Shown here piece after piece: positions 4,281 to 30,466 of a DNA stretch of 64,000 nt. The notes under the pieces are model-generated. The model was not told where the DNA came from, did not search any database, and worked only from the letters and a program-made list of their open reading frames with translations. The DNA is from Candidatus Omnitrophota bacterium. Its GTDB lineage: Bacteria; Omnitrophota; Gorgyraeia; Zapsychrales; Zapsychraceae. The stretch spans positions 69,770-133,769 of the forward strand of contig JAGQKV010000018.1 of assembly GCA_020429915.1 (NCBI GenBank), read 5' to 3'. A program made the position numbers and the translations under genes. Numbering within the stretch: the stretch's first letter is position 1; each line of letters opens with the position of its first letter.

Positions 4281-6414
4281 CTTTACTCCCCACGGACTCC
4301 GTGATTTCTTGACGCACCTGCAAATGCTGGCGGAATATCTTGGAGGAGTCCGACCAATCCCGCCCCACCAGGCCGGCGTCATCGGTGAACACGGAATTCC
4401 GGTCGTAACCGGTCAGTTTCTGCCACTGTTCGAAATTCTTGATCCCCTTATCGCTTCTGAAGGAATCGTGCCCCGGGAAAGAATAGATGTTGCGGTCGAC
4501 GTCCAGGACATCGAAATCGGTCCCGCGGATGTACACCAGATGATGTCGTCCGTCGGTATTATCCGCGCCGATCACCCGGTTGCGCCGGATCACCGTGCCG
4601 AAATCCACCCCCTTACGGGCCCGCAGTTGCATGCCGGCACTGTCCGAATAAAGCAACCAATCTCGATCCTGGGCCGTCATAAGGACAATGACGTTATCTT
4701 CAATAATATCGTCCGCGAATCCGGCGGTAGGAACTTCAAAATACCCGTTTATCCCATTCCAACAACCAATAACATTGTTATGATGTATATGATAGCCGCT
4801 TGGCATCGAATCAATCCCACCTTTTTCATAGGCAATTGTTATTCCATTGGGGTGCATTTTTACATAGTTACGTTGATATCCATTGTAGAAATCATCCAAA
4901 TAAAATCGGTCCAAAGCATCCGTAGGTCGGTATCCGGAAAATATAACATCATTGCCGGATATCTCATACCGCTCATTGTATCCGGCAATAGGACCAACGT
5001 ATACGTTCATGCTGTAATTGTCGGCCGTTATGTTGTCCTTGAAAACGGCAACATTGTGCATCCCCTCACCACCGCTATTCAGAATAATATTACCGATCAT
5101 TTCCGAATCTGCCGTCACAGCGTCACCGACGGCATCCGGCCACCCACCGGACCCACCCCAAGTCCTCCCGCGAGGCCAATTCAACATGACGGTTGCATAA
5201 AAGAAATTCTTTATCCATTTTACGGACTCTAGACCTTTTCCAAATTGGGTTGCCGCATGCTTTCCTGTAAATAGAAAACGACATTTCTCGAAAACAACAT
5301 TCTGTCCTTCGCCGACCGTCATCACTCCGATCGATGGAGCGCCGACAAAAGTTAAACCATAAAAATAGAAATTCTGACCTTGCAAATAAATGGGAATCTG
5401 GGCATTATCCCTGTCATCTCCATTGGCAATTAAATTTCTTTGACGAGGTTCCGCCTTTACCGATTTGATATAAAAAGTATTTCCGACATTGGCAAACCGC
5501 CCATCTAAATCCAACTGATAAACCGCATATTGGTCACCCGGATTAAAGACATTTTTTTGTCCTCCGGTTAACGGCGTCAAATTCAGCGTGTCGTTCTTTT
5601 TGTGCGAAGTGGCAACCGAGGTTACCTTGGCCCAGGATCCGTCGGTAATATTCCATACGGTGGCCCCGATAAAATCCGTCGGCCCTTTTCCGTGTTCCTT
5701 TTTATACTCCGTGAAATCTTTGGTTGAATCGACGAGCTGCGCCGTCCGGCCGCCCTTTTTGCCGTTATCGGTACCGTTATATCCTATGGCCTCACGACAG
5801 CAGCGATGGTTCCAGTCCATCACGGCCCAGTCGACATTGCTGGTCGGATGGGCAAACCAATTCTCATTGACCTTGGCCATCCATACGTCGCCGTCAAAAA
5901 CGGTGAATTCATCCAGGCCCCTGGTATCGCTGAGATCGAGGACCACTTCCCCATCGCCGTACGGAGCGAAAGTCGTCACATGATCTTCATCCACCGTTCC
6001 GGTCAGATTTCCCAGACCGAATCCCTCCCGGTAGTAGCCGCCGCGAATGAGCACACGCTCCCCGTGTTTGTGATTGTCGTATCGACCGGTCGCCTTGGAG
6101 ATGGTTTTGTAGGGGCCGTTGTCGCCGTGCGTGTGGCGGGGAAAAAGTCCGTTCCACTCATCGTTGCCGTTGGTACCGTCAATAAAATATGTCCGCTGAT
6201 CATTTGTATTCGGCGGCAGGGACAATCCATCTATCTCCGATGGATTGTAGTGGCGCTCGTCCATGTAGGACTTGATCTGCTCAGGAATCTCGATCTTGAT
6301 TAATTCTCCGTGGGCTGCCGGCACGGCCACAGCCAGCAGAACGACAAGAACGGGCAACGTGCAGCGCGCGGCGCACGGGAATAAATCGCGACGGAGTATA
6401 GATAGCAACATCAT
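4270..6414 (-). CDS. secreted right-handed parallel beta-helix repeat protein (pectate-lyase-fold; probable polysaccharide lyase/hydrolase/epimerase acting on the EPS)
   Basis: 714 aa; N-terminal signal peptide MMLLSILRRDLFPCAARCTLPVLVVLLAVAVPAAHG; repeated N-x-x-I/V-x-N-x beta-helix coils (NVVFEKCRFLF, IGNIILNSGGEGMHNVAVFKDNITADN, IHHNNVIGCWNGINGYF); embedded between glycosyltransferases. Confidence 0.5.
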   Translation of the reverse strand: MMLLSILRRDLFPCAARCTLPVLVVLLAVAVPAAHGELIKIEIPEQIKSYMDERHYNPSEIDGLSLPPNTNDQRTYFIDGTNGNDEWNGLFPRHTHGDNGPYKTISKATGRYDNHKHGERVLIRGGYYREGFGLGNLTGTVDEDHVTTFAPYGDGEVVLDLSDTRGLDEFTVFDGDVWMAKVNENWFAHPTSNVDWAVMDWNHRCCREAIGYNGTDNGKKGGRTAQLVDSTKDFTEYKKEHGKGPTDFIGATVWNITDGSWAKVTSVATSHKKNDTLNLTPLTGGQKNVFNPGDQYAVYQLDLDGRFANVGNTFYIKSVKAEPRQRNLIANGDDRDNAQIPIYLQGQNFYFYGLTFVGAPSIGVMTVGEGQNVVFEKCRFLFTGKHAATQFGKGLESVKWIKNFFYATVMLNWPRGRTWGGSGGWPDAVGDAVTADSEMIGNIILNSGGEGMHNVAVFKDNITADNYSMNVYVGPIAGYNERYEISGNDVIFSGYRPTDALDRFYLDDFYNGYQRNYVKMHPNGITIAYEKGGIDSMPSGYHIHHNNVIGCWNGINGYFEVPTAGFADDIIEDNVIVLMTAQDRDWLLYSDSAGMQLRARKGVDFGTVIRRNRVIGADNTDGRHHLVYIRGTDFDVLDVDRNIYSFPGHDSFRSDKGIKNFEQWQKLTGYDRNSVFTDDAGLVGRDWSDSSKIFRQHLQVRQEITESVGSKGAD

Positions 6415-6421
6415 GCCTGCC

Positions 6422-7627
6422 CTAAAAAAGTTTGGCCAGTTGTCTGGCGTTCTTGGCGATATCGAATTCTCTTTCTATCCGCTCCCGTCCCCGCGTCGCC
6501 AACCGCGCGCGCAGGTCTTTATCGGAAAGCAGATGCCGGATCTTGTCGGCCAGCACATCCACATCGCCGGGTTCGGCCAGCAATCCGGTCTGCCCGTCGA
6601 TCACGAGCTCAGGTATTCCCGAAATGCGTGAAGCCACCGCCGGCGTGCCTACCGCCAGGGCCTCCATCAGCACCAACGGGATACCGTCCTGGCCGTCGGC
6701 GTCGTCCCACACCGAAGGCACGGCGAAGATGTGCGCCTCCTTGATCCGTTTGCGGACCTCCGCGCTGTCGAGGACCCCTTCCAGGACGACGCGCCCCTCC
6801 AATCCGTATTCCGCGATCAGTTGCTCAAACCGGGGCCGCAGATCGCCGTCGCCTACGATATGACAGCGAAAGTCGTGCTCATTCTTGATCAGGTTCAAAG
6901 CATGGATAAGATTCTCAAACCCCTTCATCTGGGTCAACCGGCCTACGCACACGATAGACGGCGGATGATGCCCGTTGGGATGCGGATGGTAATCCCACTC
7001 GGACAGGTCCAGTCCGCAGTGGACGATATGGATTTTGGGAAGGATGTCTTCACCGCAATGTTCGGCCAGATAGCGCCGGTTGTATTGCGAAATCGTGGCA
7101 ACGGCCTTGGCCGCCTCAATCTTCTCGCGCAACAGGGTCTTGTCGAGAAAGATGTCGTGGGCGTGGGTGGTCAGCGTGTATTCGATCCCGGTGAGCTTGG
7201 ATATCACGGTGGCTACCAGGGCCGGATAAGTGGCGAAATGTGCATGGAGGTGCTTCAAATCCTCCTCCCGTGCCAGTTCGGCAAAGTAAGCGGCGACCAG
7301 CACACACCAGATATTCTTGTGAAATATACGAACATTGCCGAGACTGGCCGACATGACCTTGAGAGTCCACGGCACAAGCACCCCCGGTTTACGCAGCAGC
7401 CACCGGAAATAGGACAACACCATCCCACCTACCTTTATATAGTGCGTACGGGACAGGTAGGGTTTTGCCTTTTCCTGAGTGTATTTCTCCAAGTCATTAC
7501 GGATGGAGAAAATGGTGATGTCGTAGCCGGCCTTGCTCAGCTCGATGATTTCATTGAGAATAAAGGTTTCCGACCAGCAGGGAAACAGCGATACCACATA
7601 TCCGATTTTTTTCTTTTTTGCCTTCAT
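6422..7627 (-). CDS. glycosyltransferase family 4
   Basis: 401 aa; ..FAVPSVWDDADGQDGIPLVLMEALAVGTPAVASRISGIPELVIDGQTGLLAEPGDVDVLADKI.. Confidence 0.8.
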   Translation of the reverse strand: MKAKKKKIGYVVSLFPCWSETFILNEIIELSKAGYDITIFSIRNDLEKYTQEKAKPYLSRTHYIKVGGMVLSYFRWLLRKPGVLVPWTLKVMSASLGNVRIFHKNIWCVLVAAYFAELAREEDLKHLHAHFATYPALVATVISKLTGIEYTLTTHAHDIFLDKTLLREKIEAAKAVATISQYNRRYLAEHCGEDILPKIHIVHCGLDLSEWDYHPHPNGHHPPSIVCVGRLTQMKGFENLIHALNLIKNEHDFRCHIVGDGDLRPRFEQLIAEYGLEGRVVLEGVLDSAEVRKRIKEAHIFAVPSVWDDADGQDGIPLVLMEALAVGTPAVASRISGIPELVIDGQTGLLAEPGDVDVLADKIRHLLSDKDLRARLATRGRERIEREFDIAKNARQLAKLF

Positions 7628-8718
7628 TATCCGTTCAGGAGTTCATTGTAAAACGTTTTGTAGCGTTCGACCATATGTTTCAGTGTAAAATGCGCCTCGA
7701 TCTTGGCCCGGGCCCGCTCTCCCATCGCCCGCAAATCCGGACGGCGGGCGGCGTAGGCCAAGATCTGTCCGGACATCTGCGCCGTATTCCGGGGCTCGAC
7801 CAACATCCCGTTGACACCGTCATCTATGATCTCGAGATTTCCCTCCAGGGCATTGGCCAGGACGGGCACGCCCATCGCCATCGCCTCCAGCACGGCATTG
7901 GAAAACCCTTCTGTATGCGACGGCATGACAAATATGTCGAACTTGCGGACTTCGGAAGGCACGTCCGAGGATCGACCGCGAAAATCAACGACCGGCCGTA
8001 TTCCCTCCTGGTCCGCGAAGCGCTCCAGCTCCGGCCGCAAGTGCCCGTCACCCACGATAACAAAACGGATCTCCCTGTTCTTGCGGTAGACTTCGCGCGC
8101 CACCTGCAGAAAATCCATATGCCCCTTCTCCACGCGGTCCGCGGAAGCCACCATGCCCACCGTCAAAGCGCCTCCACGGGAAGCATCCCGCTGCGGCGCG
8201 GTCGGGACTTCCACCCCGCTGTACAACACCACGGCCTTGGCCGGGTCAAGGCCTTCGTTGGCCACGGTCTGCTGTTTGACGGCCTCGGACACGCACACCA
8301 CGCGGTGACAAAATTTGTTGGACCAGCGTTCCATGGCCGCGATGCGACGCGATCGGAAACGGCCCATATCACGTCGCGATGTCACGATGATCGGAACCTT
8401 TGACTGTCGTGCCGTATAGCCCCCGAAGACATTTGAAGTATTCAGATAGGTATGCACGATGTCGGGTTTGATGGCCCGCACCGCATGACGGACTTTTTGA
8501 TAACTGAGCCAGAAGCCGGGCTTCCAAATGCACATCATCGGGAAAACAGCCACACGGCGGGCACCGATAATCTGCATCAGACGCGGATGAGTGTCGCCCA
8601 GGGCTAAGACACGCAAATCAAAATCCTGGTCTCCCAGTCCGTGAACCAGCCGCGCCAGTTGCATTTGCGCGCCGCCGATCAACAGATTGTCCACCAGATA
8701 CAATATTTTCGGCCTCAT
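7627..8718 (-). CDS. glycosyltransferase family 4
   Basis: 363 aa; N-term MRPKILYLVDNLLIGGAQ; C-term ..PSHTEGFSNAVLEAMAMGVPVLANALEGNLEIIDDGVNGMLVEP.. Confidence 0.8.
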   Translation of the reverse strand: MRPKILYLVDNLLIGGAQMQLARLVHGLGDQDFDLRVLALGDTHPRLMQIIGARRVAVFPMMCIWKPGFWLSYQKVRHAVRAIKPDIVHTYLNTSNVFGGYTARQSKVPIIVTSRRDMGRFRSRRIAAMERWSNKFCHRVVCVSEAVKQQTVANEGLDPAKAVVLYSGVEVPTAPQRDASRGGALTVGMVASADRVEKGHMDFLQVAREVYRKNREIRFVIVGDGHLRPELERFADQEGIRPVVDFRGRSSDVPSEVRKFDIFVMPSHTEGFSNAVLEAMAMGVPVLANALEGNLEIIDDGVNGMLVEPRNTAQMSGQILAYAARRPDLRAMGERARAKIEAHFTLKHMVERYKTFYNELLNG

Positions 8719-9863
8719 GCGGTGAGCTCCGCCGTGTACATATCTTGCATGGTCTTGACCACCTGGCGTACGTCAAAACGCTCTGCGGCCCGCTGCCGTC
8801 CGCGCTCCCCCATTTGCCGGGCGAGTTCCGGATCATCCAGCAATCGCCGGATAGCAGCGGCGAGGGCGTCCACATCTCCCGGTGGGACAATATAGCCGGT
8901 CCGATCGTGATCGATGATCTCCGGCGGCCCGGGAATATCCGTCGCCACGGCCGGTTTGCCGAGGACCATAGCCTCGATGATCGAATTCGGCAACCCTTCG
9001 GGAAAAGTGGTGCTGGCCAGCACCAGTACGTCCAATCCGTGCATGATCTGTTTAACGTCGGTGCGCCACCCCGTAAGAATCACCTTGGATTGCAGATGTT
9101 CGCGGCGCACATAATTCTTCAGTTCTTCATAGTAGGCCGTATCGGAACCCTTGGCATCACCGACGATGAAGAAACAGGCGTCCCTGTGCCTTTTGCAGAC
9201 ATGTTTCGCCGCCTGCGCAAACTCCAATTGCCCCTTCCCTTCGACGATACGCCCGACCAGGCCGACCACCTTCATGCCTTCCAGGTTAAACTCTCCCCGA
9301 AAAGACTTGCTGGACAGCCCTTCAAATTCAGACAGATCAACACCGTCCGGGACCACATGCAGTTTAGCGGCGGGGATGTCCTTGCCGTAAATCTCCACGG
9401 CCGCCTGATTCAGGATAAAAAATTGATCGACCTTCGGCACCATCATTCGTTCGCGGCGGATAAGGGCACGGGATTCCCTGATGTAGCAGAAAACTTTCTT
9501 CCCCAGTTTGTTGGCGGCAAGGATCATGGGCATCCCCAAGGAAATATTGGTATTGATGTGGACCAGATCCACGGACTTTTCCTTTAGGAGCGCGGTCAAT
9601 CGCCGCACCAGCGGATTCAACGCCGTGAATCCCAACCGGATCAGTTTGAGCCCCCCGGCACAATTGAACGCGTCCATCCCTGCGTAAGGGATTTTTATGA
9701 CCTCCACCCCCAGCGACCGGATGCGTTCAAACTGATCGCCGTCTTTGTGGACGACCACGATTGGCCGGAACCGTTCCTTATCCAGCTGCCTGAGAATGTG
9801 GTACAGGTTCGAACTGGAACCGCCGAAACCCGAACTCGGTTCATAGTAACAAATCGTTTTCAT
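8715..9863 (-). CDS. glycosyltransferase family 4
   Basis: 382 aa; ..ASTTFPEGLPNSIIEAMVLGKPAVATDIPGPPEIIDHDRTGYIVPPGDVDALAAAIRRLL.. Confidence 0.8.
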   Translation of the reverse strand: MKTICYYEPSSGFGGSSSNLYHILRQLDKERFRPIVVVHKDGDQFERIRSLGVEVIKIPYAGMDAFNCAGGLKLIRLGFTALNPLVRRLTALLKEKSVDLVHINTNISLGMPMILAANKLGKKVFCYIRESRALIRRERMMVPKVDQFFILNQAAVEIYGKDIPAAKLHVVPDGVDLSEFEGLSSKSFRGEFNLEGMKVVGLVGRIVEGKGQLEFAQAAKHVCKRHRDACFFIVGDAKGSDTAYYEELKNYVRREHLQSKVILTGWRTDVKQIMHGLDVLVLASTTFPEGLPNSIIEAMVLGKPAVATDIPGPPEIIDHDRTGYIVPPGDVDALAAAIRRLLDDPELARQMGERGRQRAAERFDVRQVVKTMQDMYTAELTA

Positions 9864-9864
9864 G

Positions 9865-11343
9865 TCAGGATTTAATCACCATTTGCTTAATGTCCCAAAT
9901 GAACTCTTTTTCCTTGATCCAGATAACCGCCCCGAATGCCGCGCTGATGATCGTAGAATTAAGCAGGAATTTGACGATAGCGTGTGCTTCCAGGGCCATC
10001 ACGTACGGATTGGTTAGGGCAAAGGCGATTCCCATCGCGGCACAGGCCCACAATGTGGAGCTTAGAACTGCCAACACCTCGGACCACTTCACTTTTATGA
10101 GATTCAGTGTAATTGATTGTCCAATGAAAAACATGACAATGGTCAGAACTAAAATAAACCAGGATACGCCGACAATACCGTACGTTCTTGCGACCGGGAT
10201 CAAGGCGACAAACAGGATGACGGCCTTGATGCTCCCAAGAATAAATCCTATCTTCGGCTTATTCAAGCTCAGCAAAATAGGCCCTTTGGCATATCCCATT
10301 GCAGTAAACAGACCGCAAAACGCCAGAATCTGTAACAATGGTACGGCATCAATCCACTTCGATCCATATGCAACGACCAGAAAGTCGCCTCCGATAAGAA
10401 ATAGCCCTAAAGTTACCGGCGCACAAATCATAAACACCACTTTATAGACTCTCAAGAAAGCCATCTTCATATTATATAGGTTTCCCTGAAGCTTCGAGTA
10501 GGTAGGAAATAATACGTGACTCACTTTCACTCCAAGAAAAGCGGCTGGTATGCTAGCCAAATTGTTAGCAATCGAATAGACGCCCAGCGTGGATATATCG
10601 ATGACTTTGGGGATAATGATCTTGTCGAAACTCCTTTCCAAAAACCAGATCAATGAACTCAAGAAAACAAACTTTCCGAAATGAAGCATCTCTAAGGCAA
10701 CTTTTTTATCAAAAGTAAAAGACGGCCGCCAAGGTACCGCCCGCCAAAACAAAATGCATCGTATGCATTCCGTTGCCAAATAGGCAACGACCAGACTCCA
10801 CACACCGCAACCACTGAAAGCCAAAGTCAGTGCTGTAACGGAATAAAATACCTGTGAAACTACAGTTATTCTCGCAATGACATCGAACTTTATATCTTTT
10901 TCAAGTAAAGTTAATGGAACCTTACTTAAAGTAAAAATAACAAAGAACAGACCTAGGGCCCTCAATACCTCAGGTAAATCGATGGCCTCTGGATAAAAAC
11001 TCGCGACAAATGGAGTAATCACCCATAGGACTCCGTAGAGAACGATTCCCATTGGTGGTATGATGAGAAATGCCGTGTCGGTAGCCTTGTCCAGATCTTT
11101 AGTCCTCTGGATCAAGGCTTTATCGATACCGATACTCTTAAAGAGCCCTAAACCGTCGATGACGACAAACGCCAGGGCGTACAACCCGAAGTCTTCCTTA
11201 TCCAGCATGCGGGCCAGGAAAATCGTGACCACCATGCTGGAAATCTTCAGCACCACTTCCGCCATGGTCGTCCACTTGACGGAGCGGATCGCCTTCATCT
11301 TCAGACTCGGTTCTTCTTTGGGTATGTTCTCGGTATTGCCCAT
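9865..11343 (-). CDS. Wzx-type polysaccharide flippase (MOP/PST family)
   Basis: ORF track 9865..11460; first 39 codons overlap the upstream gene. ATG at 11343 lies 1 nt after that gene's stop and gives MGNTENIPKEEPSLKMKAIRSVKWTTMAEVVLKISSM.. followed by ~12-14 TM segments typical of PST flippases. Confidence 0.7.
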   Translation of the reverse strand: MGNTENIPKEEPSLKMKAIRSVKWTTMAEVVLKISSMVVTIFLARMLDKEDFGLYALAFVVIDGLGLFKSIGIDKALIQRTKDLDKATDTAFLIIPPMGIVLYGVLWVITPFVASFYPEAIDLPEVLRALGLFFVIFTLSKVPLTLLEKDIKFDVIARITVVSQVFYSVTALTLAFSGCGVWSLVVAYLATECIRCILFWRAVPWRPSFTFDKKVALEMLHFGKFVFLSSLIWFLERSFDKIIIPKVIDISTLGVYSIANNLASIPAAFLGVKVSHVLFPTYSKLQGNLYNMKMAFLRVYKVVFMICAPVTLGLFLIGGDFLVVAYGSKWIDAVPLLQILAFCGLFTAMGYAKGPILLSLNKPKIGFILGSIKAVILFVALIPVARTYGIVGVSWFILVLTIVMFFIGQSITLNLIKVKWSEVLAVLSSTLWACAAMGIAFALTNPYVMALEAHAIVKFLLNSTIISAAFGAVIWIKEKEFIWDIKQMVIKS

Positions 11344-11344
11344 T

Positions 11345-12460
11345 TTAAATCTTCCCGTTGACTCCCATGTGCTCCAAAAACCGGTCGGCAATTCGCGACC
11401 AGCGAAACGGTTCGGCATGCGCCACCACCGCGGCGCGGTCAAAGCGCACCTCACCGTCAAAAAACTGCCTTAGCCGGCGCCGGCAATTCTCGACGTTTGG
11501 TTCATCCACAAATATCCCACTGACGCCCTCCTTCACGGCGCTGCTCGACCCGTTGCCACGACTGGCCAGCACCGGAGTCCCGCTGGCGTTGGCCTCCAGA
11601 TACACCATACCGAAACCTTCCACATCAACCGACGTAGTATAGGGAACCAGCACGAATAAATCGGCGCTGCGGTAACACTGCTTCAATTCATCAAAGGCGA
11701 CGCGGCCTTTGATATGCACCCGTCCCTGCAAACCGGACTCCATGACCAATTCTTCCAGGGCCGGGCGCATCATGCCGTCCCCGATAACCGTATATTCAAA
11801 GGAATAGTCGTTCTTCAAGAATGCCAGGGCCTTGATCACACTGCCGATATTCTTGCGGGGATTGGTCAACCGCGCCACACTCATCAGGGAAAAGGTCCCG
11901 TTCGGCGCTGATTCGTGCTCCTGAAAGAAACTGGGATCCACACCGGGATTAATCACATGGACCTTGGGTTCCAGTTCGGGAAACATTTTGAGAAAACGGT
12001 CTCTGGTAAATTCACTGTTCGGAAAAATCCCGGTGACCTTGGGCAGATGTTTTCTGCGTACTGGCCGAAAAATAGTCTTTTCGATTTGAGGCCGCAGGCG
12101 CCAGATGCCGCGCTGATGAAGCCAGGGCAATTCGTACGTCACCCAAGGCGACAGAAAATCATTTCCGTGCGCACACACATAGACATTCGGTTTGTGCCGC
12201 GCCAGCATACTGTAAGAAGAATTAATCCCCAACCAGACATCCATGTCATGTCCGATCAATTGCGGCAAGTCATGATTCAGGTCCTTGGTCAGGACCTTAT
12301 GCGCGGTAACACCCGGGACAGGTTCACCCGTCGCTTTGATGAACAGGTGGACATCATGACCGCGGTCGCGGAAATTCTCCACCAGCTGCGCGGCATAGTT
12401 TTCCATTCCTCCGATCTCGGGAAAAAAATCTACGGCAATTACTCCGATTTTGCGGCCCAT
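11345..12460 (-). CDS. glycosyltransferase family 4
   Basis: ORF track 11345..12604; internal ATG at 12460 is preceded by AGAGAGGA Shine-Dalgarno and gives MGRKIGVIAVDFFPEIGGMENYAAQL..; C-terminal ..TTSVDVEGFGMVYLEANASGTPVLASRGNGSSSAVKEGVSGIFVDE.. Confidence 0.75.
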   Translation of the reverse strand: MGRKIGVIAVDFFPEIGGMENYAAQLVENFRDRGHDVHLFIKATGEPVPGVTAHKVLTKDLNHDLPQLIGHDMDVWLGINSSYSMLARHKPNVYVCAHGNDFLSPWVTYELPWLHQRGIWRLRPQIEKTIFRPVRRKHLPKVTGIFPNSEFTRDRFLKMFPELEPKVHVINPGVDPSFFQEHESAPNGTFSLMSVARLTNPRKNIGSVIKALAFLKNDYSFEYTVIGDGMMRPALEELVMESGLQGRVHIKGRVAFDELKQCYRSADLFVLVPYTTSVDVEGFGMVYLEANASGTPVLASRGNGSSSAVKEGVSGIFVDEPNVENCRRRLRQFFDGEVRFDRAAVVAHAEPFRWSRIADRFLEHMGVNGKI

Positions 12461-13407
12461 GCGCGCGTCCTCTCTTCTGTTCGTTGTGCTGTCTTTCTCG
12501 CTCCCTGACAATATCCGCTCATCCACATCAGTTTGCACCAGGACTCTAATCGTCTTTGACTGCTGAAACCGTTGACCATCAACCGCCCGCTGCGCTGCAG
12601 CCATTCCTTGACCAAATACGCCGGAACACCAGCGAACCGCCGCTCACAAAGCCGCAGACTGTCTTGATGCGACCGGGCAATGCTGTAGCCGTGGCGGAAA
12701 AACCAGTTCGTCACATAGCCGAATGTCATCCGGTGCGGCTGATGCAAATGCTCAACCACGGACCGCGCCGAATAATACACCCTGCCCTTGGCGGCAATAC
12801 GCCGGAACAAATCGGTATCCTCACCGCCGACCGGCGCGTCACTTCCCGGCCCCAAATCTTCGCTGAATCCGCCGACGCGCGTCACCATGTCCCGGCGGAC
12901 CGCCATGTTCGCGCCCACGAACGGCAGCATGTGCTCAGTGTAATACCGACTTTCGTCTCCCTCATCGCGGAAGACGATCGGGCCGTTTAAAAACTGCCGG
13001 TGTTCCTTGATCCAGGCCGGCGTCCCGGCGGGATAGACCGGCAGGACCTTGCCGCCAATCGCGTCACAGCCGGTCTGTTCGAATACATCATAAAGACCGC
13101 GGACCCATTCGCTCTGCGGCAGGACATCATCGTCGGTAAAACCGAGATAACGTCCGGTCGCAGCTTGGATGCCCGTATTGCGGGCCGCGGACAATGACGG
13201 AAGGCTTTCGGATAGAATCCGGACAGGCAGTCCCGTACGTGCGCGTACGCCTTCTGCGACGACCAGCGATTCATCCGTGCAGTTGTGGTCCACCAGGATG
13301 ACCTCCCAGTTCAGACCGGACAACCCCGTCTGACTACTGAGCGCGGTCAGCGACTGGCTCAGCAGGTGAGCCCGGTTAAAAGTCGCCATTATGATACTGA
13401 TATCCAT
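12439..13407 (-). CDS. glycosyltransferase family 2
   Basis: 322 aa; MDISIIMATFNRAHLL.. DxD region ..GFTDDDVLPQ..; classic GT2-A fold signature. Confidence 0.8.
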   Translation of the reverse strand: MDISIIMATFNRAHLLSQSLTALSSQTGLSGLNWEVILVDHNCTDESLVVAEGVRARTGLPVRILSESLPSLSAARNTGIQAATGRYLGFTDDDVLPQSEWVRGLYDVFEQTGCDAIGGKVLPVYPAGTPAWIKEHRQFLNGPIVFRDEGDESRYYTEHMLPFVGANMAVRRDMVTRVGGFSEDLGPGSDAPVGGEDTDLFRRIAAKGRVYYSARSVVEHLHQPHRMTFGYVTNWFFRHGYSIARSHQDSLRLCERRFAGVPAYLVKEWLQRSGRLMVNGFSSQRRLESWCKLMWMSGYCQGARKTAQRTEERTRAWAAKSE

Positions 13408-13521
13408 CGCAAAGGCTTAAAAAAAATCTCAGACCCTGCCCTCCGGCTCCGATGGACGGATGTCGCCTACACCTTTCACGGTGATGTCATCAAAGCCTGC
13501 TGAGAGAGTCTGAGATTGTGA

Positions 13522-14307
13522 TTAAAGGTAGCGGTAAATGTACTCCGGCAAATGATACTCGATATTTGTCAACACATGCCCCAAAATTTTGGAGTGTGAT
13601 TGAAACAGCAATTCTTCAGCCCGCTTGACGATCCCACGCTGGGTCCGCCCGGCCTGGATGACCAGGATAACACCGTCGGTTTGGGCTCCGACAATACCCG
13701 AGTCCGTAACCGAAATGATCGGCGGTGTATCGATGATGATGTGATCGAACTCGCCGCGCATCTGGTTCAAAAACCTTTTGAAGGAGTCCGACGCGAGCAG
13801 TTCGGAGGGATACTCCGGAACCTTACCCGACTGGATCAACGCCAGATTTTCGATGTCCACATGGAACAACGCGTCTTTGGCTTCGGCTTCACCCGAGAGA
13901 ACCTCGGACAGACCGATTGTCGGCTCGGTCCCCAGATACTTGGCGACCTTACCTTTTCGCAAATCCGCGTCCACTAACAGAACACGCGGCTTGTGGACGG
14001 CCTGCGCCAGTGACATCGCCAGGTTCAAGGACGTAATCGTCTTCCCTTCGGAATGGATCGAGCTGGTGATGACAAAGGTCTTGGGCGGCTTACCTTTATT
14101 CATGGACAAAACGTTGGTTCTAAGAATTTTGTACTGCTCGCTGATCAAGGCCTTGGGATCGAAATATGTGATGATACTGGGATCGACCTTCGATTCCCCG
14201 ATCTTCTTGACGATCAGTTTGTCCCGTTCCCGAATCTGTGAGACCTTTTCAATCCGTTGAATCCGTTCCTCAGCCGCTTTCTTCAATGCATTCGTAATCT
14301 TACCCAT
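13522..14307 (-). CDS. exopolysaccharide tyrosine autokinase, stand-alone BY-kinase ATPase domain (MinD/ParA-type P-loop; EpsG/CpsD-like)
   Basis: 261 aa; Walker A VITSSIHSEGKTITSLNLA, Walker A' LLVDADLRKG, Walker B HIIIDTPP; C-terminal Tyr-rich tail ..EYHLPEYIYRYL. Confidence 0.8.
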   Translation of the reverse strand: MGKITNALKKAAEERIQRIEKVSQIRERDKLIVKKIGESKVDPSIITYFDPKALISEQYKILRTNVLSMNKGKPPKTFVITSSIHSEGKTITSLNLAMSLAQAVHKPRVLLVDADLRKGKVAKYLGTEPTIGLSEVLSGEAEAKDALFHVDIENLALIQSGKVPEYPSELLASDSFKRFLNQMRGEFDHIIIDTPPIISVTDSGIVGAQTDGVILVIQAGRTQRGIVKRAEELLFQSHSKILGHVLTNIEYHLPEYIYRYL

Positions 14308-14416
14308 CCTTGATCATCTCCTATTCTCAAGATCGTCTCGGTGACGTCGTGTTAATCCAAGATTACCACAGCGGCTGGCCATCGGCCAGCCGCCTTGGTC
14401 CATTAGGTTCCCCAAC

Positions 14417-14827
14417 CTAATTCGCTTCCCGTCTTAAATACTCAAATCCCCCGAAAAGACAGAGTTTCTCGACCATACCCCGCCCTTCCTCAAACATTTT
14501 CTGAAAGTAATCCGCTGTCACGTAATTCCACTGCCTTGCGATGTACAGTTGGGCGATAGTTTCGTGGACCGCCTCCACGGCATTTCTCAAGCATGACTCC
14601 AGTGCGTGTTGGGACCGGCTGCGGGAGGCCTTGGCCACCCGATCGGCGATCCGGACGGAGGACGCCAGGATCTTATCTTTCAGACCGCGCTTGGCATCAT
14701 CCGGCATGGTGACGGCGACGCCGTTGATCCGGTTGATGAACTCGACCGCTTCCTTCCATACATCCAGGGTGTCCCGGCGAAGAGAGGGATCAAAACGGCT
14801 GAATTGTCGGTCGTTGATGGAGTACAT
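14417..14827 (-). CDS. hypothetical protein, possible four-helix-bundle protein
   Basis: ORF track 14417..14893; ATG at 14827 sits 1 nt after the stop (14829) of the upstream ATPase gene. All-helical prediction from composition; weak resemblance to TIGR02436-type four-helix-bundle proteins. Confidence 0.35.
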   Translation of the reverse strand: MYSINDRQFSRFDPSLRRDTLDVWKEAVEFINRINGVAVTMPDDAKRGLKDKILASSVRIADRVAKASRSRSQHALESCLRNAVEAVHETIAQLYIARQWNYVTADYFQKMFEEGRGMVEKLCLFGGFEYLRREAN

Positions 14828-14828
14828 G

Positions 14829-15695
14829 TTAGTTCCTTTGTATAAAGGGCATTTCTTCGGATGTCGCGTTCGGATTGACTTCGCCGATGACAACCATCGG
14901 TGATTCGTTAATAACTTCCATCATCAGCGTGGCGTTGATCAGCGGAACCTCGCGGATGTAGCCGGTCAACAACGCGCTGTCGCAAATTTGATTGATCAGG
15001 CGCGGTGTCCCCTTCGAAAAGCGGTAGACCAGCTCCAAGGCATCGGGCGTAAAATACTCCCGGTCACTGTTGCTCGCCACCTTAACACGGTGACGAATAT
15101 AATTGATGGTGTCTTCCCGGGTCAACGGCGTGAGGTGATAAAACACCGCGATCCGTTGCCGCAACTGTTCCAACCGCGGTAGCGCCAGCTTCTGACGTAA
15201 TTCCGGCTGACCGAGGAACAGGATCTGAATCAGTTTCTCGTTCTCGGTCTCCAGATTGGAGAGCATGCGGACCTCTTCCAAAACCGACGGCTTCAGGTTC
15301 TGGGCTTCATCAATGATCAAAACCACATTGTTGTCCATACGCAGCTCTTCAATCAAGTAATCGTTGAGCTGAGCAATAAGCCGGGATTTGGACCCGGGGA
15401 CAAAGTCCACTTCGAATTCTTCGAGAATGGAGGTCAGCAGATCCTTCCCGCTGATGTGAGTGTTGGTGATCAGCGCAGTTTTGGTATTCGGATCGAGCTG
15501 ATTCAACAGGGTTCGACAGACCGTGGTCTTTCCGGAACCGATATTCCCGCTGACGACCACGAATCCCTTACGCTCTTTAATGGCATAGAGCAATGTGCTC
15601 AGGGCCTCGGAGTGCTTCTCGCTTTCGAAGAAGAAGCGGGAATTCGGCGTCAAATTAAATGGCGCTTCAGCAAAACCGTAGTAGTTAAAATACAT
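14829..15695 (-). CDS. ExeA/GspA-like AAA ATPase (EPS/PEP-CTERM-locus secretion ATPase, EpsI-like)
   Basis: 288 aa; P-loop ..GFVVVSGNIGSGKTTVCRTLLNQL.., Walker B ..NVVLIIDEAQNL..; architecture matches ExeA-family ATPases found in exosortase-associated EPS loci. Confidence 0.7.
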   Translation of the reverse strand: MYFNYYGFAEAPFNLTPNSRFFFESEKHSEALSTLLYAIKERKGFVVVSGNIGSGKTTVCRTLLNQLDPNTKTALITNTHISGKDLLTSILEEFEVDFVPGSKSRLIAQLNDYLIEELRMDNNVVLIIDEAQNLKPSVLEEVRMLSNLETENEKLIQILFLGQPELRQKLALPRLEQLRQRIAVFYHLTPLTREDTINYIRHRVKVASNSDREYFTPDALELVYRFSKGTPRLINQICDSALLTGYIREVPLINATLMMEVINESPMVVIGEVNPNATSEEMPFIQRN

Positions 15696-15708
15696 ATCCG
15701 TCGCATCC

Positions 15709-17010
15709 TTAGATAATGGTGGTCAAGGCGGTCGTCACCACGATGGCGATAATCCCGCCGAGGATCACCAAACTGTATAACCAACTCAATCGTTCCCGTT
15801 CCTTACGCAAACTCGCATCCGTATTGATCTTGGAAATGGCGCCCAACAACGGTTGTCCAAAGAACTTGTTGGCGTCCTCCACATCGATAAACGACTTGTC
15901 CAGAAATTCCAGACCGAAGACCAGCACGATACCGAACATCGCGCCGGCAGCGGCACCGGCGATCCCGACCAACACTTTGTTCGGCCGGATCGGCTTCAAC
16001 GGCAGACGCGGGGGGTCCAGGATCGTATACTTGGTTCCTTCTTTGGAGGCCTGCAAACGCTGGGTAATCTTGGCCGTCTCGGCGCGTTGCAGCAACGTGT
16101 TGTAAATCTGATTGTTGACCTGGACATCGCGGGCCATGACGTTATCCAGCCTGTCCAACAACATCAGCTTGTAAGCGTCCTTCTGGATTTCATCGGCCTT
16201 ATTAGGCTGTCCGCTGGCCAGACTGATTCCCGCGACCGTGCCGCCGTCGATATTATCGAGGGCCTTGCGGATTTCATCGATAATCGGCCGGGTGGTGGAC
16301 ATGTCCAGCGCGGCCGCCTCGCTAAATTCGAGATTCTCGCGCTCGAGCTCCTGCTCCTTCGACTTGATTTGCTCCCGCAGCTCTCTCACCCGCGGATGCC
16401 GTTCGGTCGAATCAATCAGGAGCGCGTTCAACTGGTCCCGCAACTGAACGATCTCGGCGGATTTGATCTTGCCCCGATAGACCCGCAATTGCTCTTCGAT
16501 AAACTGGATGGCGTCGGCCGTTTCCCGGTTTTGAATATTCACGTTGCGTTCGATGAAGATCTCGGTGATATTCTTGACCACCGCCTGCGTTGTTTCCGGC
16601 GTCGCACCGACATAGGAAAGGTCGATGATGTTACGGCCTTTCAGATTGATGTCGATCTTATCCCGGATACCGAGGATGAGTTTTTCCAATTCCTGGGGTG
16701 TTTTGATTTCCTTATCCATTTCCAGGCGTTTGACCAGCTCCACCAAGCTGTTCCATCCCAGCATGGATTCCCGGATGGTGGCCAGGCGTTGATTCACGGT
16801 CGTGGATACGGCGATATTATTGAAGAGCGGATTGTCGCTCTTGCCGTCCTCTATCAGCAAAGTCGTCGAGGACTTGAACTTCTTGGGAAGAATGATCCCC
16901 GCGCAGATCCCCAGAATCAAGCCCGTGAAGACCGGGATAATGAAGTATTCCTTCCGGCGGAAGAAAATCTTCAGATAGTTCATAATGGATAGTTCAGCGT
17001 GTCGTGACAT
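15709..17010 (-). CDS. polysaccharide chain-length determinant (Wzz/GumC-like co-polymerase)
   Basis: 433 aa; N-terminal TM (IIPVFTGLILGICAGIILP), long coiled-coil periplasmic region, C-terminal TM (LSWLYSLVILGGIIAIVVTTALTTII); immediately upstream of the kinase as in Wzz + BY-kinase split systems. Confidence 0.7.
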   Translation of the reverse strand: MSRHAELSIMNYLKIFFRRKEYFIIPVFTGLILGICAGIILPKKFKSSTTLLIEDGKSDNPLFNNIAVSTTVNQRLATIRESMLGWNSLVELVKRLEMDKEIKTPQELEKLILGIRDKIDINLKGRNIIDLSYVGATPETTQAVVKNITEIFIERNVNIQNRETADAIQFIEEQLRVYRGKIKSAEIVQLRDQLNALLIDSTERHPRVRELREQIKSKEQELERENLEFSEAAALDMSTTRPIIDEIRKALDNIDGGTVAGISLASGQPNKADEIQKDAYKLMLLDRLDNVMARDVQVNNQIYNTLLQRAETAKITQRLQASKEGTKYTILDPPRLPLKPIRPNKVLVGIAGAAAGAMFGIVLVFGLEFLDKSFIDVEDANKFFGQPLLGAISKINTDASLRKERERLSWLYSLVILGGIIAIVVTTALTTII

Positions 17011-17047
17011 TTATGGCAACCTCTCCTCTATGATATTCTCACAAATT

Positions 17048-17848
17048 TTAGAATCCGCCCGTGGTAACGGTACGGCCTACTCCCGCTCCGGTAGTAATCG
17101 GCGCGGCCACCGGCTGAATCGTGCGCATGACCTTGGTCATAGCCGTCGGCGGTATAAACAACGTGTCGCCGGGTTTCATGACGAGATTCTCGCGCAAATC
17201 TCCTTTGTACAGCAGGCTCTTGACGTTCACTTTCTTTTGCTCGGGCACGCCATTGGCTGAGGGCGTGAACAATTTCGACTTCTCGACCTTGGCGGTCAGT
17301 AAGGGAAGTCCGGCCTGCAATAAAGCTTCCCGGACGGTGATCGTGTCCCCGCGCATAAAAATCTTTCCCGGTTGACCGACCTCGCCGATCACGTAGACCA
17401 CCTTGCTGTTGTAGCCAATGATCTTAACGGTCACTTCCGGTGAAATAATAAATTCGGTCAATTTCTCCTGCAGCGTATCCGTTACCTCATCCTTGGTTTG
17501 TCCGGCCACATGCACATCGCCGGCAAATTCGTACTGGATCTTGCCTTCCTGGTTGATGATGTACTGGCCGCTGACTTCCGGATGGCGCAGGACGGTCACT
17601 TCAATCACGTCGTTAACCCCCAGCGTGTAACGGCTGTCGCTCGGGACTTCCATATTAATGATGCCCGGATCAACCGGTTGGGCTCCCGCTTCGGCATATG
17701 TCTGCAAGACTTGCTGATTGATCAATTGCTGCTGTCGTTCCAGCTCTTCGGGAGTCATGGCTTGCTCCTTGGCGTGGGCCGGACCGGGGACCGCGATCAA
17801 CGCTGTCAAAAATACAATCATTTTATAGTGTCTCAGTAACTTCGTCAT
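17048..17848 (-). CDS. polysaccharide export protein (Wza/EpsE-like, poly_export + SLBB domains)
   Basis: 266 aa; signal peptide MTKLLRHYKMIVFLTALIAVPGPAHA; ..LGVNDVIEVTV.. and ..YVIGEVGQPGKIFMRGDTITVREALLQAGLP.. typical of Wza-type periplasmic export components. Confidence 0.7.
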   Translation of the reverse strand: MTKLLRHYKMIVFLTALIAVPGPAHAKEQAMTPEELERQQQLINQQVLQTYAEAGAQPVDPGIINMEVPSDSRYTLGVNDVIEVTVLRHPEVSGQYIINQEGKIQYEFAGDVHVAGQTKDEVTDTLQEKLTEFIISPEVTVKIIGYNSKVVYVIGEVGQPGKIFMRGDTITVREALLQAGLPLLTAKVEKSKLFTPSANGVPEQKKVNVKSLLYKGDLRENLVMKPGDTLFIPPTAMTKVMRTIQPVAAPITTGAGVGRTVTTGGF

Positions 17849-17882: not shown

Positions 17883-18056
17883 TTATACTTCGACAATGGT
17901 TTCGCGGAATTGCTTGATGCTCTCCAAATCGTCCTCATCATAAACGCGCCAACCGCGCCAGTCGCGTTTTGCCTTGCGGACTTTTCCGACCTTTTCCCAA
18001 CGAACGATCGTCTTTGGAGAAATGCCGACAATTTCAGCGACTTCGGTGATAGTCAT
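17883..18056 (-). CDS. small MerR/excisionase-type helix-turn-helix DNA-binding protein
   Basis: ORF track starts at a TTG (18173) that overlaps the sigma-54 promoter; first ATG at 18056 gives MTITEVAEIVGISPKTIVRWEKVGKVRKAKRDWRGWRVYDEDDLESIKQFRETIVEV (HTH_17/MerR-like). Confidence 0.45.
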   Translation of the reverse strand: MTITEVAEIVGISPKTIVRWEKVGKVRKAKRDWRGWRVYDEDDLESIKQFRETIVEV

Positions 18057-18169
18057 TCGTTTGTTCACTGTCTTCCTCCCTTTCGTTTTCCCTACATTAC
18101 TCGTGGCTTCATATCCGGTTGTTATCTCTGACCCCAAGGGGTCTGCGCTGCAATCACCTAAACTAGGGA

Positions 18170-18184
18170 GCAATTAGCGTGCCA
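18170..18184 (-). promoter_or_regulatory. sigma-54 (RpoN) -24/-12 promoter, perfect consensus TGGCAC-N5-TTGC on minus strand
   Basis: Plus strand reads GCAA-ttagc-GTGCCA at 18170-18184 (reverse complement TGGCACgctaaTTGC). ~115 nt upstream of the HTH gene ATG and at the head of the HTH-wza-wzz-ATPase-kinase-GT operon; rpoN is the next gene. Confidence 0.6.
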
Positions 18185-18524
18185 AACCCGGACAATGCCG
18201 GTCATCAAAATACTACGACTCATAAACATATGCAGTAGAAAGGTTTGTAAGGAAGGTTGAAACAAAAGCAGAAAAGATTGGACTTCACCTGTGTTTCTCG
18301 ATGTTTAAAAGAATAAACATTACAGTCCCGGACACACCCGGACACACTCGGAACGGCGTATTATATCAACAACTTACGGCAATGTCTATTTTTATCACCA
18401 TCCGCCGCCCCCTCCAGAATTGCAAGAAAAGGCATTTTAGAGCGATCCTGGCACTCCTGTCTAATATAGGTCTATAAATTAATAGAATTTGTAAATAATA
18501 ATCATTGTGGTATACTTTTTGCGT

Positions 18525-19898
18525 ATGGCACTTAACACCTCACAAATTCAGATCCAAAAGCAAATTCTGGCCCCGACCATGCAGCAATCGATCGAGGTCC
18601 TGATGCTCCCTATTATCGAGCTGAATACGGCCATCGACCTGGAGCTGCAGGAAAATCCCTGCCTGGAGATCGATGAAGAAAAGACCGCGCGCGAACGCAA
18701 GCAGCTGGACGATATCATCCAGAATGCCCTGCGCCACCGGGCGGACCGCGCCTACAGCACCAGTGATGAATCCGAGAATGTCGATGATGACCTGCCCGAT
18801 GAAAAGCCGATTCCCGGGGCGGTCCATATTGATGACCACCTGCTCAATCAGCTGCGCCTGGAGACCAACGACCCCCTGGCCGATGAAATCGGAGAACTGA
18901 TTATCGGCAGTCTGGATGAAGACGGCTATTTGACGGTTAGCTGTATGGATATCGCCCGCACGCTACGGCTGGATTCAGTCGAACCCGTGGAAGACGTCCT
19001 GCGGATGATTCAGGGTTTTGATCCGATCGGCATTGCCTCCCGCAACCTGCAGGAATGCCTGCTGGCACAGATCAATACTCAATTCAACGGGCATGCCGAC
19101 CTGGCCCGCGCGATCGTCACCGATTGTCTGGATGAGCTCGGGCGCCGCCGCTACCAGGATATCGCCCGAAAACTCAAGAGTTCGCTGGAAGACGTCAAAC
19201 ACGTAGCCAAATCGATATCGCATCTCGAACCCAAGCCGGCCCGCAAATACCAGCCTTATAACAGCAACATCTATGTCAAACCCGACATCATGATTACCAA
19301 GGACAAGGAAGAACAGTTCCAGGTCCAGGTGAATAACGAAAATGTCCCCAGCCTGCGTATCAGCGCCACCTATGAGAAAATTCTCAAGCAGCCCAACCGC
19401 TCGGCGGAGGAAACCGAGTTTATTCGGGAAAAAATCAAGAATGCGCTGATGTTCATTCGCAGCATCGAGCTGCGCCGGGAGACCCTGAAGAAGATCGCGG
19501 AGTACATCCTCAACCACCAAAGAGCCTTTTTCGTAAATGAACAGAATCCGCTGAAACCCATGATCCTCAAGGATGTCGCCCAAGCGGTGGAACGCAATGA
19601 ATCGACGGTCTGCCGGGCGATCAACAATAAGTATATCCAGACACCGCACGGCCTGTACCCCGTGAAATACTTCTTCTCCCAAGCGGTCAATGACAATGCC
19701 ACCGGCGAAAACGTGGCCAGCCGCAGCGTCAAGGAAGAAATCAAGAGCCTCATTGACGATGAGGACAAGACACACCCCCTCTCCGACCAGGCCATCCAGG
19801 CCCACTTCGAGAACAAAGGCATGAAGATCGCCCGCCGCACGATCAGCAAGTACCGGCAACAATTGAATATCCTGCCCTCGCATTTGCGCAAAATCTAA
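18525..19898 (+). CDS. rpoN: RNA polymerase sigma-54 factor RpoN
   Basis: MALNTSQIQIQKQILAPTMQQSIEVLMLPIIELNTAIDLELQENPCLE (region I), core-binding region, C-terminal HTH and RpoN box ..ARRTISKYRQQLNILPSHLRK. Track start 18507 is 6 codons upstream. Confidence 0.9.
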   Translation: MALNTSQIQIQKQILAPTMQQSIEVLMLPIIELNTAIDLELQENPCLEIDEEKTARERKQLDDIIQNALRHRADRAYSTSDESENVDDDLPDEKPIPGAVHIDDHLLNQLRLETNDPLADEIGELIIGSLDEDGYLTVSCMDIARTLRLDSVEPVEDVLRMIQGFDPIGIASRNLQECLLAQINTQFNGHADLARAIVTDCLDELGRRRYQDIARKLKSSLEDVKHVAKSISHLEPKPARKYQPYNSNIYVKPDIMITKDKEEQFQVQVNNENVPSLRISATYEKILKQPNRSAEETEFIREKIKNALMFIRSIELRRETLKKIAEYILNHQRAFFVNEQNPLKPMILKDVAQAVERNESTVCRAINNKYIQTPHGLYPVKYFFSQAVNDNATGENVASRSVKEEIKSLIDDEDKTHPLSDQAIQAHFENKGMKIARRTISKYRQQLNILPSHLRKI

Positions 19899-29471: not shown

Positions 29472-29643
29472 GGTTATCCTTATCGATTGTCCACGGACCG
29501 TTTGGCGAAGCCGGCCCGGATCGTATATACTTGAAGCGTCGTCTGTCGGGTCTTCTCCAGGCCGCCGACGCCGACCGTAAACGGTGGAGAACTTTCTCCA
29601 TTTTAACATCAACTTCCAGACGAAATGTGATAAGATTGGGATT

Positions 29644-30291: not shown

Positions 30292-30395
30292 CATCGTCTA
30301 TTTGCGGACGAGGCTTGATAGAGGGCTCGCTAACACAATAACGTGCGCCCCGGGACAGATTCATTGGTACCAACGCGTGTGGCCTGTGCTCAGCT

Positions 30396-30438
30396 CAAAA
30401 AAAATCCCCTTGGTGAATCATCACCAAGGGGATTTTGC
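30396..30438. terminator. bidirectional rho-independent terminator (15-bp perfect stem AAATCCCCTTGGTGA / TCACCAAGGGGATTT, loop ATCA, flanked by A8 and T4)
   Basis: Between convergent genes 29644..30291(+) and 30467..31327(-); on the minus strand the hairpin is followed by an 8-U tract. Confidence 0.7.
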
Positions 30439-30466
30439 TGTCTATCTTTCGTAAGCCGTTTGAGAA

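Follow-up and report, generated by a model that had tools for sequence, protein, structure and literature searches.

What drives the transcription of a large exopolysaccharide (EPS) operon that stands back to back with the gene for sigma-54? This question is raised by a stretch of 64,000 nucleotides of contig JAGQKV010000018.1 (assembly GCA_020429915.1, positions 69,770 to 133,769 of the forward strand) from a Candidatus Omnitrophota bacterium, which we call the window and whose own numbering is used below. A previous sequence-only reading had proposed that a perfect sigma-54 promoter, adjacent to rpoN, heads an EPS export and assembly operon on the minus strand. Our comparison with orthologous loci shows that this element, here named P1, is kept in all of them, and P1 is almost certainly a real sigma-54 promoter of the EPS operon, as well established as sequence analysis allows. 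The features on which the argument rests are the following.

18170..18184, minus strand: P1, the sigma-54 -24/-12 element TGGCAC-GCTAA-TTGC, with its GG at 18183/18182 and its GC at 18171/18170
18525..19898, plus strand: rpoN, coding for sigma-54 (457 aa; AID, CBD and DBD domains of Pfam), divergent neighbour of the operon
17883..18068, minus strand: first operon gene, coding for a MerR-type winged helix-turn-helix (HTH) protein of 61 aa, with the start GTG at 18068 and the Shine-Dalgarno sequence GGAGG at 18075-18079
548..17848, minus strand: body of the EPS export and assembly operon, continuing past the window start

P1 in the window and in orthologous loci

A direct read of the minus strand from 18184 to 18170 gives TGGCACGCTAATTGC and of the plus strand from 18170 to 18184 gives gcaattagcgtgcca, in the minus-strand context TTTGGCACGCTAATTGCTCCC, which bears out the exact TGGCAC-N5-TTGC facing the minus-strand operon that had been reported. 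The GG and GC dinucleotides are 10 nt apart within this pattern, as in sigma-54 promoters. P1 is intergenic, faces the operon and lies 90-102 nt upstream of the GTG at 18068 (the GC of its -12 part at 102 nt), within the range of about 50-300 nt expected of such promoters, and its transcription start site (TSS) is predicted near 18158, about 12 nt downstream of the GC. The TTG at 18173, given as a start in the open reading frame (ORF) track, belongs to an artificial extension that produces a 96-aa ORF overlapping the -12 element, as had been recognised before. When the 64-kb window was searched for the exact pattern, 2 copies were found vs 0.17 expected, and the second copy (640-654, plus strand) falls within the coding region of a glycosyltransferase of family 4 (GT4). 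With one mismatch allowed there were 5 sites vs 4.5 expected, which is no excess. On the evidence of the window alone, the match at P1 is only suggestive.

Comparison with related loci, which are designated here by L numbers where they need to be told apart, decides the case. The closest relatives of the operon's Wza protein came from eight metagenome-assembled genomes (MAGs) of Candidatus Omnitrophota or misassigned as 'Planctomycetales', and from one 'Deltaproteobacteria' MAG. In each of these nine genome loci (9/9) wza follows the HTH gene, rpoN is the divergent neighbour in six of them, and TGGCA[CT]-N5-[TC]TGCT is found in every one, 94-134 nt before the HTH start. Additionally, five further loci, reached through HTH homologues and held out from matrix building, each contained a site of 15-22 bits; among 5000 shuffled versions of each intergenic region, 0, 0, 2, 0 and 15 reached the score of the real site. 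With extra loci from a metagenome scan made for another purpose, 27 distinct loci were obtained after de-duplication, mostly from Candidatus Omnitrophota and with HTH identities of 61-100%. All 27 contain a P1-type element in the same orientation, 81-141 nt before the HTH start (294 nt in one of them), and 23 show the synteny of rpoN divergent from HTH-wza.

Within these elements, the TGG, the A two bases after it and the TGCT are invariant (27/27), the C after the GG and the first T of TTGC are each kept in 24/27, and the five spacer positions are free to vary, giving the family consensus TGGCAYRnTAWTTGCT. Invariant recognition positions around a variable spacer are the pattern expected of sigma-54 recognition, not of arbitrary sequence conservation, so that the 27 orthologous loci support the view that a sigma-54 promoter heads the EPS operon. 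Furthermore, a position weight matrix constructed from the orthologous sites and used to score the window gave P1 23.9 bits; the runner-up anywhere in the window reached 13.7 bits, P1 being the sole hit above 14 bits. The same scan detected no other sigma-54 promoter in the window, including the 251-nt region upstream of its PEP-CTERM gene (30467-31327, minus strand).

Two minor features of the intergenic region may be recorded here. The predicted P1 5' leader contains a perfect GC-rich hairpin (18130-18143; minus strand GACCCC-TT-GGGGTC) that the relatives do not have, and a search of Rfam gave zero matches in the leader or the intergenic region. On the strand that faces rpoN, a TGGCAC at 18448-18453 (plus strand) lacks a GC where the -12 element would be (TGGCACTCCTGTCTA), is not conserved in the relative L001 and is probably due to chance.

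A conserved block upstream of P1

In the alignment of the intergenic region between rpoN and the HTH gene little is conserved beyond a few blocks, and the strongest of them spans 18344-18301 on the minus strand. It is composed of three sites.

18335..18344, minus strand: site A, TGTCCGGGTG, first unit of a 10-bp direct repeat
18324..18334, minus strand: site B, dyad TGTCCGGGACT (consensus TGTC-N3-GACA), second repeat unit
18301..18320, minus strand: site C, AT-rich dyad ATGTTTATTCTTTTAAACAT (consensus TGTTTAA-N4-TTAAACA)

On the minus strand the order is TGTCCGGGTG / TGTCCGGGACT / gta / ATGTTTATTCTTTTAAACAT. Most of the rpoN-linked loci keep site A in the form TGTCCnGGT, about 140-165 nt before the -24 TGG. 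Site B, which lies 10 nt downstream of site A, is recognised by a strict pattern in 21/27 distinct loci, and site C is the most conserved block of the whole intergenic region. Across the rpoN-linked loci the block begins at near-fixed positions, 117-165 nt before the -24 TGG. The tandem repeats noticed earlier at about 18322-18345 are present as two tandem copies of CCCGGACACA at 18327-18346, and the sequence then given for them, CCCGGACACAC, corresponds to sites A and B as read on the plus strand. The suggestion that they might be an upstream activating sequence fits, as they are part of this conserved block.

Motifs of the same kind accompany other sigma-54 promoters. In L020, which is the part of the same contig beyond the window start, a second perfect sigma-54 site, TGGCACGCATATTGC, lies at 16992-17006 (plus strand), about 5.3 kb beyond window position 1 and between the EpsI gene and the genes for a priming glycosyltransferase and a PEP-CTERM protein. 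Upstream of this site are ATGTTTAATTAATTGAACAT, a copy of site C, and TGTCTAGGAC-TGTCCGGGTA, in which TGTCTAGGAC is the equivalent of site B; these motifs are 98-157 nt from the -24 element, in an order that differs from that of the window block. A site A type motif, TGTCCGGG, is also found at -114 of this promoter. In the relative L052, the sigma-54 promoter TGGCACAGTATTTGCT (3218-3233, plus strand) precedes the gene for a secreted PEP-CTERM protein with the C-terminus VPEPATILLF...RR, and CCCGGACA, a copy of TGTCCGGG, stands at -110 of it. When several sigma-54 promoters that serve one functional system have upstream motifs in common, this is the mark of an enhancer used by a shared activator, and because P1 and the L020 promoter share them, the two units would form one regulon.

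Two further occurrences are noted for completeness. A third copy of TGTCCGGG in the window (18187-18194, minus strand) abuts the -24 element of P1 (CATTGTCCGGGTTTGGCAC) and is found neither in L001 nor in the other relatives. A 12-bp palindrome similar to the site B dyad, TGTCCCGGGACA, is found at 29777-29788, close before the ATG of a 588-aa ORF (28002-29768), and may itself fall within coding sequence.

A second promoter, P2, and the first gene of the operon

The promoter scan also showed a sigma-70-type promoter upstream of P1 and in the same direction.

18360..18388, minus strand: P2, TAGACA-17 nt-TGaTATAAT

P2 matches 11/12 positions and has the TG of an extended -10. Its predicted TSS is near 18353, which places sites A-C at about +10 to +53 of P2. 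A promoter of 11/12 matches occupies the equivalent position in 10/27 distinct loci and is degenerate in the rest, and the upstream block is retained in loci where P2 is degenerate. We take P2 as a probable lineage-specific basal promoter and, since loci with a decayed P2 still have P1 and sites A-C, we take the primary role of these sites to be that of a P1 enhancer and not of a P2 operator. With a strong P2 upstream, a sigma-70 TSS in that place would not by itself argue P1 away.

The first gene deserves attention because its product is a DNA-binding protein. The ATG at 18056 had been regarded as its first plausible start, and the GTG at 18068 is more likely: a GGAGG lies 6 nt upstream of it, the GTG, the Shine-Dalgarno sequence and the N-terminal residues are conserved in the relatives, and public gene calls give 61 aa, with an identical protein (P0001) annotated in a Candidatus Omnitrophica MAG and encoded on an ENA contig of 528 kb. 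The protein matches Pfam MerR_1 (5e-12, residues 1-52) and has no coiled-coil or effector domain. In PDB its matches are N-terminal domains of MerR proteins and BldC (6amk/6ama; E about 5e-4). Proteins of the BldC family are stand-alone MerR-type winged HTH proteins of about 60 aa without a coiled coil, and the 61-aa protein is of this build, while it fails the NCBIfam model HTH_BldC (NF033787; 27 bits, cutoff 77). The simplest guess is that it acts as a feedback regulator. No variation is seen in its recognition helix and wing (…PKT[IL]xRWEK…KRDWRGWRVY), even among five loci without recognisable sites A-C, which is a mild argument against the binding of this protein to sites A and B.

Proposed mechanism and its rivals

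At sigma-54 promoters the polymerase forms a closed complex, which is opened only when an AAA+ enhancer-binding protein (EBP) hydrolyses ATP. The best explanation of our data, to which we assign a probability of about 0.75, is that P1 is a functional sigma-54 promoter of the EPS operon that works with the upstream block as enhancer and with a distant activator. Transcription from P1 would begin near 18158 and proceed through an operon of about 23 kb, comprising the HTH gene, the export core, glycosyltransferases, flippase and polymerase, to an end outside the window that includes an XrtA-like exosortase and EpsI. The closed complex at P1 would be opened by an AAA+ EBP encoded elsewhere in the genome, most likely bound to the block 117-160 bp upstream of the -24 element, that is, to the direct repeat/dyad TGTCCnGGTnTGTCnnnGACA and the dyad TGTTTAA-N4-TTAAACA. 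An activator sitting on sites A-C could in addition repress P2 while it activates P1, in the manner of NtrC. The P1 unit and the L020 unit, with its priming glycosyltransferase and PEP-CTERM protein, would constitute a single regulon. The intact sigma-54 gene next door also counts for P1 being functional.

Several results weigh against this explanation. P2 alone could supply the transcription of the operon. Sites A-C are missing or unrecognisable in about five of the 27 loci, all of which retain P1, and no IHF site is conserved between the enhancer block and P1. Searches for an EBP, by the GAFTGA hallmark together with Walker A in six frames and by the Sigma54_activat domain (PF00158), found none in the window, as the sequence-only reading had predicted for a regulator encoded outside it, and also none in the 10 kb beyond each window end or in the fetched related loci, which amount to 527 kb. 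Lastly, in Aquincola, an exosortase organism that has been studied by experiment, transcription of the EPS genes is apparently independent of RpoN (PMC9850573).

A rival reading is that the operon is transcribed mainly from P2, that sites A-C are operators of a repressor (for example of the operon's own MerR-type protein) acting on P2, and that P1 is silent or a holoenzyme bound to it serves only as a brake. P2 is indeed a good promoter, kept at the same relative position in 10/27 loci, sites A-C are in a typical operator position with respect to it, the first gene codes for a DNA-binding protein, and the 527 kb of related loci contain no EBP. However, P2 is degenerate in about 60% of the loci, where P1 and sites A-C are retained; the invariance of the P1 consensus positions in 27/27 loci would be unexplained by a silent site; the upstream motifs also accompany a second sigma-54 promoter; and the recognition helix and wing of the HTH protein are invariant even in loci that do not have sites A-C. 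We therefore regard transcription mainly from P2 as improbable. That P1 is merely a chance match, or the site of an unrelated factor, could be argued from the window, where 0.17 exact matches are expected in 64 kb and another exact match is found within a gene, but the sigma-54-type conservation in 27/27 loci, the shuffles of the held-out loci and the adjacent rpoN effectively refute this, and its probability is negligible.

A further alternative accepts P1 as real and has the block bound at least in part by the 61-aa MerR/BldC-like protein, whose function would be architectural or one of feedback. BldC occupies direct repeats of 9-10 bp in head-to-tail fashion and distorts the DNA (PMC5859096), the 61-aa protein is a stand-alone MerR-type winged HTH protein of BldC size, sites A and B form a 10-bp direct repeat, and there is no conserved IHF site. 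Set against this are the score on NF033787 (27 bits vs 77), the consensus of the BldC repeats, AATTnnnn(C), which is unlike the TGTCCnGGTn repeat of this locus, and the invariance of the DNA-contact regions of the HTH where sites A-C are missing. Such a contribution of the protein seems unlikely, if the least so of the alternatives to our favoured explanation. More doubtful is a bolder combination of these elements, in which rpoN and the exosortase EPS operon would be one inherited Omnitrophota cassette with a sigma-54 largely dedicated to EPS and the envelope, the 460-bp region would be a sigma-70-to-sigma-54 switch, and the BldC/Xis-like MerR protein would replace IHF as a DNA bender and exert positive feedback.

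The search for an activator

Outside the window, the flank on the side away from the exosortase and EpsI genes codes for an RND pump and a 1886-aa receiver-domain protein. In the relative L017 (1-1546, equal to L022 8001-9635), rpoN has as neighbours the genes for a tetratricopeptide repeat (TPR) protein and for an orphan histidine kinase whose catalytic core is AtoS/ZraS-like. Kinases with such cores usually partner activators of the NtrC type. As a lead to the EBP this kinase was abandoned, as no response regulator or EBP is found nearby in L022 and no EBP beside a homologue in L023. Furthermore, it is not PrsK, with 102 bits on the PrsK model (cutoff 300), and the TPR protein scores 27.8 bits on that for PrsT (cutoff 312).

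Control by a PrsR-type EBP had been suggested for this locus on the grounds that exosortase-type EPS loci are known to be regulated in this way. This premise is imprecise: Haft et al. (2006) predicted PrsK/PrsR control and sigma-54 sites before single PEP-CTERM genes, in Proteobacteria only (PMC1569441), and the EPS genes of Aquincola are those cited above as apparently RpoN-independent (PMC9850573). Verrucomicrobium has no PrsK, PrsR or PrsT (PMC1569441). In our material PrsR (TIGR02915), PrsK (TIGR02916) and PrsT (TIGR02917) are absent from the window, its 10-kb flanks and the related loci. Motif 1 of the bipartite site published for PrsR is 17 nt long, ends in TTTACA at its 3' end and lies about 63 nt upstream of the -24/-12 motif (PMC1569441). 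Compared with that description, the block reads differently (TGTCCnGG and TGTTTAA-N4-TTAAACA), and the distance from the end of the block to the -24 TGG is 116 nt in the window and 98 nt in L020. On these comparisons, a PrsR-type activator is not supported.

Relation to known systems

The tandem layout resembles that of glnAp1/glnAp2 in E. coli, in which bound NtrC acts as a repressor of the sigma-70 promoter upstream and as the activator of the sigma-54 promoter downstream. Here too a sigma-70 promoter is followed by a sigma-54 promoter, with candidate activator sites over or just downstream of the sigma-70 start. However, the distance between the predicted starts is about 195 nt and that in glnA about 115 nt, the binding motifs differ, just about a third of the related loci have P2, and the layout is known here from sequence. 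In the syp cluster of Vibrio fischeri, with its activator SypG, a large polysaccharide cluster likewise has -24/-12 promoters that share an enhancer motif. The syp activator is encoded inside the locus, whereas there is no activator gene in the locus studied here.

With the PrsK-PrsR-PrsT system, the locus shares the setting of exosortase/EpsI/PEP-CTERM EPS loci and -24/-12 promoters that have a conserved upstream motif in common. The sigma-54 promoters of L052 and L020 also precede PEP-CTERM genes, like that of pepA of Aquincola (PMC9850573). The difference is that the sites of Proteobacteria stand before single PEP-CTERM genes and P1 stands before the EPS export and assembly operon. More generally, a link of sigma-54 with EPS and the bacterial exterior is an established theme, and the genomic context of rpoN is conserved and linked to functions of the cell envelope (Francke et al. 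2011, PMC3162934); here rpoN is the divergent neighbour of its probable target operon instead of being in the usual lptB-rpoN-hpf context.

It is established that sigma-54 sites with a shared enhancer occur in exosortase systems, which has been known since 2006, and what we describe is a familiar kind of prediction, well supported, and no new mechanism. Particular to this case are the phylum, the EPS/exosortase operon as the target, a different enhancer motif, the tight linkage of rpoN and its target, and the tandem sigma-70/sigma-54 arrangement. The sigma-54/PEP-CTERM link would thus extend beyond Proteobacteria and onto the EPS operon itself, with a predicted regulon of EPS export, exosortase, priming transferase and PEP-CTERM proteins. 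A search of the accessible literature found nothing on transcriptional regulation in Omnitrophota, sigma-54 included, and the phylum goes unmentioned in a 2025 cross-phylum survey of sigma-54 regulons. P1 may offer an entry point to regulation in this uncultivated group, one that fits with sigma-54 control of the cell exterior, and the consensus TGGCAYRnTAWTTGCT together with the enhancer motif can serve to track down the activator and all members of the regulon once complete genomes of the phylum are scanned.

rpoN and its own promoter

The gene starting at 18525 had been named as rpoN, the next and divergent gene, and this holds: besides its three domains, it scores 402.7 bits on TIGR02395 (cutoff 277), is complete and has the RpoN box ARRTISKYR, and the same neighbour is found in most of the relatives' loci. 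Its promoter region is as follows.

18489..18524, plus strand: rpoN promoter, with the -35 TTGTAA at 18489-18494 and the extended -10 TGGTATACT at 18508-18516

Downstream of the -10, TTTTGCGT abuts the ATG at 18525; the family form of this segment is TTYTTGCRT and that of the -35 is TTGnnA. The block as a whole, TGGTATACTTYTTGCRT, is present in 12/12 rpoN loci, including four in which an ORF had been miscalled into it. The transcript likely starts at the purine two bases before the ATG, and the mRNA would be near-leaderless. As the block contains GG-N10-GC, autoregulation by sigma-54 was considered; in Rhizobium leguminosarum rpoN is known to be negatively autoregulated (cited in PMC3538637). 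The idea is weakened because the 20-mer TGGTATACTTYTTGCRTATG, found in 41 metagenome loci, begins rpoN in 23 of them and also an unrelated real ORF in about 10. We consider autoregulation at this block rather unlikely, and the 20-mer is more likely a generic module of an extended -10 and a near-leaderless start.

The EPS operon and the exosortase locus

Domain assignments confirmed the operon content that had been described (HTH, Wza, Wzz, ATPase, tyrosine kinase, glycosyltransferases of families 2 (GT2) and 4, flippase and polymerase). In the direction of transcription, the genes after the HTH gene are these.

17048-17848, minus strand: Wza (Poly_export/SLBB), by domain search
15709-17010, minus strand: Wzz/GNVR, by domain search
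14829-15695, minus strand: AAA_22 ATPase, best match an XrtA/PEP-CTERM-associated ATPase
about 14417-14893, minus strand: 23S-IVP four-helix protein, between ATPase and BY-kinase (compare L017 9265-9672)
13522-14307, minus strand: BY-kinase, followed by GT2 and GT4 genes
9865-11460, minus strand: MOP flippase, followed by three more GT4 genes
4270-6414, minus strand: 714-aa protein with no match in Pfam or NCBIfam, followed by a GT4 gene
1696-3168, minus strand: Wzy (Wzy_C), by domain search
548-1699, minus strand: GT4, last operon gene within the window

Promoter-like and terminator-like sites inside the operon show no excess over chance, which supports a single transcription unit. Genes for four-helix bundles of the 23S-rRNA-intervening-sequence type are also present in several copies in L023, another Omnitrophota locus.

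Beyond the window start, on the same strand, L020 continues with GT4, GT2, deacetylase, GT2, exosortase and EpsI genes. The exosortase (L020 15316-16146, 3.6 kb beyond the window start) scores 180.9 bits on TIGR02602 (cutoff 105.6) and falls just below the cutoff of the XrtA-specific model (188 bits, cutoff 208); EpsI scores 99.8 bits on TIGR02914 (cutoff 42.8), and the priming transferase that follows the L020 promoter 321 on TIGR03025 (cutoff 295.6). PEP-CTERM proteins are encoded at 30467-31327 (minus strand) in the window and at 18004-18861 in L020. For the export-core proteins the XrtA-type equivalogs are the best or near-best match, all with scores below the cutoffs: TIGR03027 for the export protein (99.8, cutoff 180), TIGR03007 for the chain-length determinant (238.8, cutoff 278.9), TIGR03015 for the ATPase (296.6, cutoff 324.5) and TIGR03018 for the tyrosine kinase (149.8, cutoff 230.7). 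Judged by these matches, the locus is a divergent exosortase system. The designation as exosortase-type was correct, and only by way of genes outside the window, namely those for the exosortase, EpsI and a PEP-CTERM protein in L020.

Two other features of the window were seen. Downstream of its PEP-CTERM gene, a strong hairpin followed by a T-run, resembling an intrinsic terminator, lies at about 30395-30440, and an ORF of 2800 aa occupies 39792-48194 on the minus strand.

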